Source: Escherichia coli (GTDB lineage Bacteria > Pseudomonadota > Gammaproteobacteria > Enterobacterales > Enterobacteriaceae). Taken from it: a stretch of DNA of 64,000 nt. The DNA lies in the NCBI RefSeq assembly GCF_003334335.1, contig NZ_QOWQ01000005.1. One strand, given 5' to 3'. Each line of letters opens with the position of its first letter. The stretch's first letter is position 1. The position numbers were made by a program, and so were the translations under genes. Positions 62,262 through 64,000 of this stretch are shown here, one piece after another. Under the pieces are notes generated by a model that was given only the letters and a program-made list of their open reading frames with translations, did no database searches and was not told the DNA's origin.

Positions 62262-63083
62262 ATGTCGTGTGAAGAACTGGAAATTGTCTGGAACAATATT
62301 AAAGCCGAAGCCAGAACGCTGGCGGACTGTGAGCCAATGCTGGCCAGTTTTTACCACGCGACGCTACTCAAACACGAAAACCTTGGCAGTGCACTGAGCT
62401 ACATGCTGGCGAACAAGCTGTCATCGCCAATTATGCCTGCTATTGCTATCCGTGAAGTGGTGGAAGAAGCCTACGCCGCTGACCCGGAAATGATCGCCTC
62501 TGCGGCCTGTGATATTCAGGCGGTGCGTACCCGCGACCCGGCAGTCGATAAATACTCAACCCCGTTGTTATACCTGAAGGGTTTTCATGCCTTGCAGGCC
62601 TATCGCATCGGTCACTGGTTGTGGAATCAGGGGCGTCGCGCACTGGCAATCTTTCTGCAAAACCAGGTTTCTGTGACGTTCCAGGTCGATATTCACCCGG
62701 CAGCAAAAATTGGTCGCGGTATCATGCTTGACCACGCGACAGGCATCGTCGTTGGTGAAACGGCGGTGATTGAAAACGACGTATCGATTCTGCAATCTGT
62801 GACGCTTGGCGGTACGGGTAAATCTGGTGGTGACCGTCACCCGAAAATTCGTGAAGGTGTGATGATTGGCGCGGGCGCGAAAATCCTCGGCAATATTGAA
62901 GTTGGGCGCGGCGCGAAGATTGGCGCAGGTTCCGTGGTGCTGCAACCGGTGCCGCCGCATACCACCGCCGCTGGCGTTCCGGCTCGTATTGTCGGTAAAC
63001 CAGACAGCGATAAGCCATCAATGGATATGGACCAGCATTTCAACGGTATTAACCATACATTTGAGTATGGGGATGGGATCTAA
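62262..63083 (+). CDS. cysE: serine O-acetyltransferase
   Basis: 273 aa with left-handed beta-helix hexapeptide repeats. Confidence 0.9.
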   Translation: MSCEELEIVWNNIKAEARTLADCEPMLASFYHATLLKHENLGSALSYMLANKLSSPIMPAIAIREVVEEAYAADPEMIASAACDIQAVRTRDPAVDKYSTPLLYLKGFHALQAYRIGHWLWNQGRRALAIFLQNQVSVTFQVDIHPAAKIGRGIMLDHATGIVVGETAVIENDVSILQSVTLGGTGKSGGDRHPKIREGVMIGAGAKILGNIEVGRGAKIGAGSVVLQPVPPHTTAAGVPARIVGKPDSDKPSMDMDQHFNGINHTFEYGDGI

Positions 63084-63097
63084 TGTCCTGTGATCGT

Positions 63098-63130
63098 GCC
63101 GGATGCGATGTAATCATCTATCCGGCCTAC
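63098..63130. repeat. REP palindromic element between cysE and trmL
   Basis: GCCGGATGCGATGTAATCATCTATCCGGCCTAC, a GCCGGATG...CCGGCCTAC imperfect palindrome. Confidence 0.6.
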
Positions 63131-63135
63131 AGTAA

Positions 63136-63609
63136 CTAATCTCTCAATACCGCTCCCGGATACCCCAACTGCCGCCAGGCTTCATACACCACTACCGACA
63201 CCGCATTGGACAGATTCATGCTGCGGCTGTCCGGCACCATCGGAATGCGAATTTTTTGTTCAGCGGGCAGGGCATCAAGAATGCTCGCTGGCAGGCCGCG
63301 TGTTTCCGGGCCGAACATCAGATAATCGCCATCCTGATAGCTTACGGCGCTGTGAGCAGGTGTACCTTTCGTGGTGAGGGCGAACAGGCGCTGGGGATTT
63401 TCTGCTTCGAGGAACGCGCGATAGTCATGATGACGCGTAACGGCGGTAAACTCGTGATAGTCCAGCCCCGCGCGGCGCAGGCGCTTATCGTCCCAGGCAA
63501 ATCCCATCGGTTCGATGATATGCAGACGAAAGCCGGTATTAGCGCAAAGACGGATGATGTTGCCAGTATTTGGCGGAATTTCTGGTTCGTAAAGTACGAT
63601 GTTTAGCAT
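63136..63609 (-). CDS. trmL: tRNA (cytidine/uridine-2'-O)-methyltransferase, SPOUT family
   Basis: 157-aa [30 protein letters not shown]. Confidence 0.9.
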
Positions 63610-63660
63610 ACTGCCCCCTTAGTGCGGGGGCAGGATAGCAGAAAATTGGTGAGCAGTGCG

Positions 63661-63800
63661 GCCTTTTCCCCTCACCCCGGCCCTCTCCCCGGAGGGGCGA
63701 GGGAGAAAAAAAGAGTGCGGTGTCGTTTCAGAGTGAGGGAGTACATACAGCGCCGAACGGTCCCCTCTCCCTGAGGGAGAGGGTTAGGGTGAGGGGGCGC
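63661..63800. repeat. pair of GC-rich repeat copies in inverted orientation between trmL and lldD
   Basis: CCCCTCACCCCGGCCCTCTCCCCGGAGGGGCGAGGG and, about 45 bp away, the near-reverse-complement CCCTCTCCCTGAGGGAGAGGGTTAGGGTGAGGGGG. Confidence 0.5.
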
Positions 63801-63806
63801 AAACGA

Positions 63807-64000
63807 CTATGCCGCATTCCCTTTCGCCATGGGAGCCAGTGCCGCAGGCAACTCTTTACCCAGCCCCTGCACCAGCGAATCTTGCGTAATTTCGCTGATC
63901 GATTTCGCGCCAGTCAGCGTCATCGCCACTTTCATCTCTTTTTCGATCAGATTTAGCAGGTTAGCTACACCCGCCTGGCCCGCTGTTGCCAGCGCATACA
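63807..64000 (-). CDS. lldD: L-lactate dehydrogenase, C-terminal fragment (gene continues past window end)
   Basis: Minus-strand translation ends ...[28 protein letters not shown] stop; N-terminus lies beyond the window. Confidence 0.8.

Follow-up and report, generated by a model that had tools for sequence, protein, structure and literature searches.

BoxC repeats of Escherichia (E.) coli, found beside envM/fabI, were reportedly described by Bergler et al. in 1992, and are said to have been renamed PIT elements by Hoyne and Maher in 2000 and 2002. Neither a transposase of its own (RAYT) nor a protein partner (IHF, gyrase) is known for the repeat. Holder et al. 2015 (PMC4666352) identified 23 TMECO elements in strain MG1655, stated that they are what had been called BoxC in the 1990s and PIT elements by Hoyne and Maher, and formulated the rule that inverted pairs are composed of one type A and one type B element. 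Two members are also found among the putative G-quadruplexes of Kaplan et al. 2016 (PMC5100583), i.e., HPG1 no. 43 (midpoint 3781038, 11 nt past lldD) and HPG2 no. 44 (midpoint 3781145, 59 nt ahead of trmL). The same repeat has been catalogued four times under four names, which are here tied to coordinates, a matter of small importance for annotation.

Oligonucleotides of type A, of type B and with one mismatch were shown to fold in vitro as an intrastrand triplex (CD, NMR), and Kaplan et al. (PMC5100583) found HPG2 to form a G-quadruplex by CD, with an oligonucleotide switching that is ion-dependent in vitro. In vivo, at another BoxC copy where this was examined, the triplex guanines were not protected from DMS. 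In earlier reporter work, PIT elements reportedly displayed neither promoter nor terminator activity and had no effect on RNA polymerase. TMECO loci have been described as hypervariable, with palindromic pairs that lose parts of both arms.

The lldD-trmL spacer and its repeat pair

The 64-kb stretch of E. coli DNA analyzed here (the window) ends with the secB-gpsA-cysE region of E. coli K-12; beyond cysE, the minus strand carries trmL and lldD, separated by a spacer of 197 nt (see table). An earlier note on this DNA had pointed to a GC-rich inverted repeat pair in the spacer, and such a pair was found: the motif GGGAGAGGG-NNN-GGGTGAGGGG has two exact matches in the window, in opposite orientation, at 63668-63689 (minus strand; NNN = CCG) and 63775-63796 (plus strand; NNN = TTA), where 0 are expected (100 shuffles). 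These loops are those of one type B and one type A element, as stated by the pairing rule of Holder et al. Their 2015 search pattern, CCCTCNCCC-N3-6-GGGNGAGGG-N3-GGGNGAGGG, also gave two matches, at 63669-63703 (minus strand) and 63763-63795 (plus strand), and 0 in 100 shuffles. The best inverted-repeat arms of the spacer are 22 nt long and 86% complementary.

The suggestion that the pair belongs to an extragenic repeat family, possibly box C-like, proved correct to the letter, as both copies are found in Table 1 of Holder et al. as nos. 17 and 18. Copy 17, CCCTCTCCC-TGA-GGGAGAGGG-TTA-GGGTGAGGGG, is an exact match of CCCTCTCCCTGAGGGAGAGGGTTAGGGTGAGGGG (MG1655 3781061-3781028) and harbors a perfect internal hairpin, CCCTCTCCC/GGGAGAGGG, of 9-10 bp. 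Its G-rich tail faces the lldD stop codon, and it is thus the C-rich strand of this copy that is present in the lldD mRNA. Copy 18, CCCTCGCCCC-TCC-GGGGAGAGGG-CCG-GGGTGAGGGG, is an exact match of CCCTCGCCCCTCCGGGGAGAGGGCCGGGGTGAGGGG (MG1655 3781121-3781156), and its G-rich tail faces trmL. The cores, which are 34-36 nt, lie 59 nt apart, i.e., farther than the about 45 bp given at first. The map between MG1655 and window coordinates is confirmed by four base positions from a radiation-evolution study (PMC11344242; see below), which land on the expected letters of copy 18.

Table. Coordinates of features in and around the lldD-trmL spacer (positions in the window)
Feature	Position	Strand	Remark
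trmL	63136-63609	−	as in annotated K-12
trmL-proximal hairpin, CUGCCCCC-GCACUAA-GGGGGCAG	63611-63633	−	RNA fold
TGCTATCCT, extended −10-like box (TGnTAnnnT)	63632-63640	−	abuts the hairpin and overlaps its two outer pairs
3' "tail" flank of copy 18, AAAAGGCCGCACTGCTCACCAATTTTC	63641-63667	−	homologous to GAACAGGCCGGCACTGGCGCGAATATTTA; reaches the trmL TGCTATCCT box
BoxC/PIT/TMECO no. 18, type B with one stem mismatch (loop 2 = CCG), = HPG2 no. 44	63668-63703	−	
59-nt "head" linker between the cores	63704-63762		ends are type-specific 5' flanks
BoxC/PIT/TMECO no. 17, type A (loop 2 = TTA), = HPG1 no. 43	63763-63796	+	
Short tail flank of copy 17, GCGCAAACGA, between repeat and lldD stop codon	63797-63806		weakly similar to the family flank
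lldD stop codon	63807-63809	−	as in annotated K-12

RefSeq holds no annotation at this repeat; the 90 records listed are all without a feature at the position of the match. Comparison with catalogued families, which the earlier note had proposed, places the copies in BoxC rather than REP; the REP consensus (GCCGGATGCGGCG...TTATCCGGCCTAC type) is absent from 63610-63806. When 63000-64000 was searched against Rfam 15 at a permissive threshold, all matches were far below gathering scores. Outside the spacer, a REP element (GCCGGATGCGATG...ATCCGGCCTAC) is located at 63092-63127, between cysE and trmL, and is the only REP-related Rfam match in the 63000-64000 segment (naRNA4 model, 26 bits, below threshold). 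On the basis of sequence identity, the spacer feature is a set of two catalogued BoxC copies (also named PIT, TMECO and HPG1/HPG2), i.e., already known and ordinary rather than of a new kind. The copies are identical in kind to the described family (an inverted A+B pair, intergenic, multi-copy), and their cores are the same sequences as the oligonucleotides used in the published triplex and G-quadruplex work. Because a unit is composed of a C-rich arm, a G-rich arm and a third G-rich block, its single strand may adopt a hairpin, an intrastrand triplex or a G-quadruplex.

Copy number and anatomy of the repeat family

For the proposed family, a single-copy element was the outcome against which the earlier note had set a copy count by blastn. 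Among 5,426 complete E. coli genomes, 5,361 contained matches to the query 63640-63806, at 80,355 places in total, with a median of 16 places per genome, a maximum of 35 and 18 in K-12; only 46 of the 80,355 are on plasmids. Because the places are many and nearly all chromosomal, BoxC is a dispersed chromosomal repeat. The number varies sharply across E. coli lineages, from 1-2 in some genomes, e.g., NC101 and Ecol_AZ153, to 11 in O157:H7 and 14-35 in many others. Outside the species, Salmonella has 0 copies and Enterobacter asburiae LF7a has 143. All 11 other K-12 BoxC loci that were fetched are intergenic.

Flanks were aligned for 29 copies from K-12 loci (hrpB-mrcB, fepB-entC, ygfF-gcvP, alx-sstT, the CP4-6 prophage, tauD-hemB, adk-hemH, fabI-ycjD, aaeR-tldD, zntA-tusA and yjdP-phnP), other strains and other genera. 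The alignment shows that the BoxC unit exceeds a 35-mer and includes type-specific flanks and linkers; the roughly 35-bp motif noted at the outset is indeed present in two copies, but the repeat unit is longer and runs into conserved flanks. Type A cores are preceded by ..gCgCAC..CGGTC and type B cores by ..gCaC..TTTTTCT, where the T-rich stretch ahead of type B was seen before by Kaplan et al. (PMC5100583). On the 3' side, both types share GCAC about 10 nt out. The head linker at lldD-trmL ends in AGAAAAAAAGAGTGCGG, the reverse complement of the type B flank gCaC..TTTTTCT, and in CAGCGCCGAACGGTC, the type A flank gCgC..CGGTC. A special kinship between the K-12 and Kluyvera linkers was considered and rejected; the similarity is that of the family flank, which is present at ygfF-gcvP too.

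By the coordinates of the published Table 1, the 23 K-12 copies comprise 13 that stand alone and five pairs, four of them tail-to-tail with 16-27 nt between the copies; the tail-to-tail pairs have a common 27-29-nt linker, GAACAGGCCGGCACTGGCGCGAATATTTA. The lldD-trmL pair alone is head-to-head, with the G-tails facing outward.

BoxC is an interspersed non-coding repeat of Enterobacteriaceae, and can be compared with REP/BIME elements. These are likewise short GC-rich imperfect palindromes, restricted to intergenic regions, with two subtypes alternating with set linkers, and are strongly polymorphic among strains without target-site duplications. By analogy, BoxC units, single or alternating in orientation, would be organized much as REP units are in BIMEs. 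The cpxA-yiiM spacer holds either a BoxC block or a REP cluster, depending on the allele. BoxC differs from REP in having no sequence similarity to it and in its third G-block, which allows a triplex or G-quadruplex. With ERIC/IRU elements, the paired form shares its size of about 130 nt, its long terminal inverted repeats, the prediction of a strong RNA hairpin and its presence in some strains but not others; it differs in that no target-site duplication was found for BoxC and that solo half-units are the commonest form.

Natural alleles of the spacer and the role of the pair

At least 80% of the pair is found at one place in only 3,122 of the 5,426 E. coli genomes. Matches to a 601-nt query covering the spacer fall into span classes of 601, 599, 589, 557-558, 476 and 451 nt, i.e., the locus has at least five length alleles, from the full pair, which is the K-12 form, down to a 47-nt spacer without BoxC. 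In the O157:H7-type allele (91-93% identity; about 1,600 genomes fall in the 90-95% identity band), 12 nt have been lost between the direct repeats CCCTCACCCCGG/CCCTCTCCCCGG, by which one G-block of copy 18 is gone. In the B-strain-type allele, the pair interior is swapped for a 35-nt palindrome. Remnant alleles of 72 nt hold only the outer C-run and the tail flank at 63641-63667; these are clearly deletions, as the insertion edges are retained. The 47-nt spacer is found in EPEC E2348/69 and clone D i2, and a short spacer is also present in E. albertii and the GTDB E. coli representative. Estimated by subtracting search counts, about 400 genomes harbor the B-strain-type allele and about 1,900 a remnant or BoxC-free form. 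The locus offers a clean natural allelic series, i.e., full, one block lost, remnant and empty. Such variation agrees with the hypervariability published for TMECO loci and with the loss of parts of both arms in palindromic pairs.

The palindrome of the B-strain-type allele, CTGTCTCTTGATCAGGAGATCTGATCAAGAGACAG, stands in place of window 63683-63768 and matches the right end of an IS4/Tn5-family insertion sequence (fetched locus, 1090-2533) at 33 of 35 positions; the left end of this insertion sequence, CTGTCTCTTATACACAA, presumably resembles a Tn5 outside end. The palindrome is present in 2,466 genomes, 1,001 of its places being on plasmids, and may represent an excision scar or a mini-element that consists of a solo IS end.

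Beyond these strains, lldD is adjacent to trmL in 13 species, nine of which have spacers of 39-65 nt without BoxC; BoxC is found in the remaining four, i.e., Kluyvera, Pseudocitrobacter, Superficieibacter and isolate RIT691. Parsimony across species favors the short spacer as the ancestral state. In Pseudocitrobacter faecalis the head-to-head block has the orientation opposite to that in E. coli and includes three tandem copies of a 43-nt unit.

Because natural alleles range from the full pair to a BoxC-free spacer, the pair is dispensable at lldD-trmL. The best reading is that it is near-neutral here, as judged from its natural absence, and it may have been lost by replication slippage at the hairpin or palindrome. 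It is very probable, all evidence considered, that a head-to-head BoxC A+B pair with its flanks fills 63641-63806 as a dispensable, deletion-prone passenger, and that the adjacent hairpin is a separate element of trmL. The alternatives discussed below were given less weight in view of the many natural strains in which the pair is missing or truncated.

The pair would form the 3' untranslated region of the lldPRD transcript and lend it a very stable predicted fold: the RNA of the 216-nt segment 63600-63815 folds at −94.3 kcal/mol (z = −4.2) and the BoxC pair alone at −67.7 kcal/mol (z = −3.0). The large cruciform or mRNA-stabilizing structure after lldD envisaged in the earlier note is only a prediction from such folds. 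That this is not a simple terminator, as also claimed there, agrees with the scans. No intrinsic terminator, i.e., no hairpin-plus-T-run site, was found in the spacer, and a scan of 63400-64000 gave a single site, inside trmL, at 63560-63576. The spacer hairpins resemble a Rho-independent terminator in being GC-rich and located past a stop codon, and differ from it in that no U-run follows on either strand and in the negative PIT reporter tests that have been published.

A functional alternative, which we consider unlikely, is that the pair acts as a 3'-end element of the lldPRD mRNA, where its hairpins block 3'-to-5' exonucleases and set the level of the lldD message relative to that of trmL, like the REP/BIME elements of some operons. 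The pair begins 11 nt past the lldD stop codon and its unit hairpins are stable (−18.4 and −28.8 kcal/mol), as is the pair as a whole. In Kluyvera, Pseudocitrobacter, Superficieibacter and RIT691, moreover, the repeat occupies the same position and presents the same strand to the mRNA, so that in E. coli and four other genera BoxC directly follows the lldD stop and contributes its C-rich strand to the mRNA. This recurrence could reflect selection or a target preference, but the position says little because the spacer gives only about 14 nt of room. The single-unit folds are ordinary for their composition (z about −1), the K-12 loci have no consistent orientation relative to flanking genes, and the published assays were reportedly negative for terminator activity and for an effect on RNA polymerase. 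A 3'-end function is also difficult to reconcile with the genomes that retain a remnant or nothing, or that fall in the identity band of the allele deleted for one G-block.

A second alternative, which appears improbable, is that the about 130-nt unit composed of type B, linker and type A is one miniature inverted-repeat transposable element, inserted as a block. The same head-to-head layout is found in other strains at cpxA-yiiM, rhaA-rhaD and phnK-phnL, with presence/absence polymorphism at all these loci, and in Pseudocitrobacter the same spacer holds the block in opposite orientation. Between cpxA-yiiM and rhaA-rhaD, identity is 92% over the whole block and 86% in the linker, which indicates that a block can be duplicated in its entirety. 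Compared with the head linkers at the three other loci, however, the linker of lldD-trmL reaches an identity of only 52-58%. Inverted arms are present, but comparison of filled and short alleles at lldD-trmL, rhaA-rhaD and cpxA-yiiM revealed no target-site duplication; where the block sits in filled alleles, the short ones hold 14-17 unrelated nt or a REP cluster. Short-allele motifs at rhaA-rhaD and lldD-trmL could be remnants of a lost pair. The prevalence of solo copies and of tail-to-tail pairs in K-12, the absence of an associated transposase and the near absence of plasmid copies also argue against a mobile block.

The cpxA-yiiM spacer contains a BoxC head-to-head block in 161 genomes and a REP cluster in K-12 and most strains, and the rhaA-rhaD spacer has at least seven length classes in E. 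coli (spans of 492-870 nt with a 651-nt query), with REP and BoxC combined.

The trmL leader hairpin and its upstream box

Next to the trmL start, the hairpin CTGCCCCC/ttagtgc/GGGGGCAG, with an 8-bp stem and a 7-nt loop, was found as initially described, its arms being at 63611-63618 and 63626-63633, one base from the ATG. The 3' arm holds the Shine-Dalgarno sequence AAGGGGG and stops 1 nt short of the AUG; the RNA of 63604-63640 folds at −19.9 kcal/mol (z = −3.07). The hairpin is unchanged in every E. coli allele examined, the BoxC-free one included, and is, by this conservation of sequence, separate from the BoxC repeat. No Rfam family and no description in the literature searched corresponds to the conserved hairpin and the promoter-like box upstream of it, which are apparently undescribed and provide a small testable lead.

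The arrangement TGnTAT(n)CT followed by the hairpin is found at nearly all of 57 Enterobacterales loci, which span Escherichia to Serratia, Yersinia, Erwinia, Pantoea, Hafnia, Edwardsiella and Photorhabdus; three have variant boxes, among them TATAAT in Hafnia. All 51 distinct Enterobacterales sequences have a stem of at least 6 bp, with a mean minimum free energy of −15.5 kcal/mol and a mean z of −3.98 relative to shuffles, where the z-scores, obtained from per-sequence folds and shuffles, are descriptive and not a formal covariation test. The sequences form 36 distinct stems, in which the outer pairs alternate between C-G, G-C and U-A. When the trmL leader was aligned with MAFFT alone, RNAalifold predicted no pairs, as the stems differ in length and fell out of register. 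A covariance model from close relatives recovered only Enterobacteriaceae-like sequences, and per-sequence folds and shuffles were therefore used. At the Pasteurellaceae loci examined, the hairpin is absent. The idea that its loop mimics the tRNA-Leu anticodon loop, in an autoregulation, was dropped, as the loop is not conserved outside Enterobacteriaceae.

The box and hairpin are present with either lldD or another gene upstream, and also in many genera without BoxC nearby. In several other genera, the spacers upstream of trmL contain BoxC units or remnants. We infer that TGCTATCCT is the extended −10 promoter of trmL. A scan for two-hexamer consensus promoters found nothing in the spacer, which is expected because an extended −10 promoter has no −35 element. 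Were transcription to start about 7 nt past the box, near 63625, trmL's own mRNA would lack the 5' arm of the hairpin. In that case, only in read-through RNA from lldD would the ribosome-binding site be sequestered and translation silenced.

A broader reading, which we regard as highly doubtful, combines these elements: BoxC would be a BIME-like mosaic family spread as blocks by a trans-acting system, lldD-trmL a preferred landing site (hit repeatedly, in both orientations, in at least five enterobacterial genera), and copy 18 together with the hairpin would set the degree to which trmL is insulated from lactate-induced read-through.

The least probable proposal, put forward by the G-quadruplex survey (PMC5100583) and the radiation-evolution study (PMC11344242), is that copy 18 is a G-quadruplex/hairpin/duplex switch, or a triplex, which tunes the trmL promoter; GGGAGAGGGCCGGGGTGAGGG is a canonical G3N3G3N3G3N3G3 motif that as an oligonucleotide switches with ions in vitro (PMC5100583), and the G-tail ends close upstream of TGCTATCCT (27 nt in K-12, 8-12 nt in three other genera, 8 in Enterobacter asburiae), but the O157-type allele lacks one G-block and the 47- and 72-nt spacers lack the motif with the trmL box and hairpin unchanged, the triplex guanines at another copy were unprotected in vivo, and the box and hairpin occur in many genera that have no BoxC nearby.

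The radiation-evolution study (PMC11344242) reported four variants at MG1655 3781152, 3781150, 3781145 and 3781140, which map to window 63672, 63674, 63679 and 63684, respectively. In each of the four populations, at a frequency of about 8%, a non-G is reported as changed to G at these sites, all of which lie within G-tracts of copy 18; one accompanying variant lies in another BoxC copy (4070483). Rather than to selection, this pattern seems to be due to a systematic artefact of sequencing or cross-mapping at a repeat; such low-frequency variants of an evolution experiment exemplify the over-interpretation that the BoxC motif attracts.
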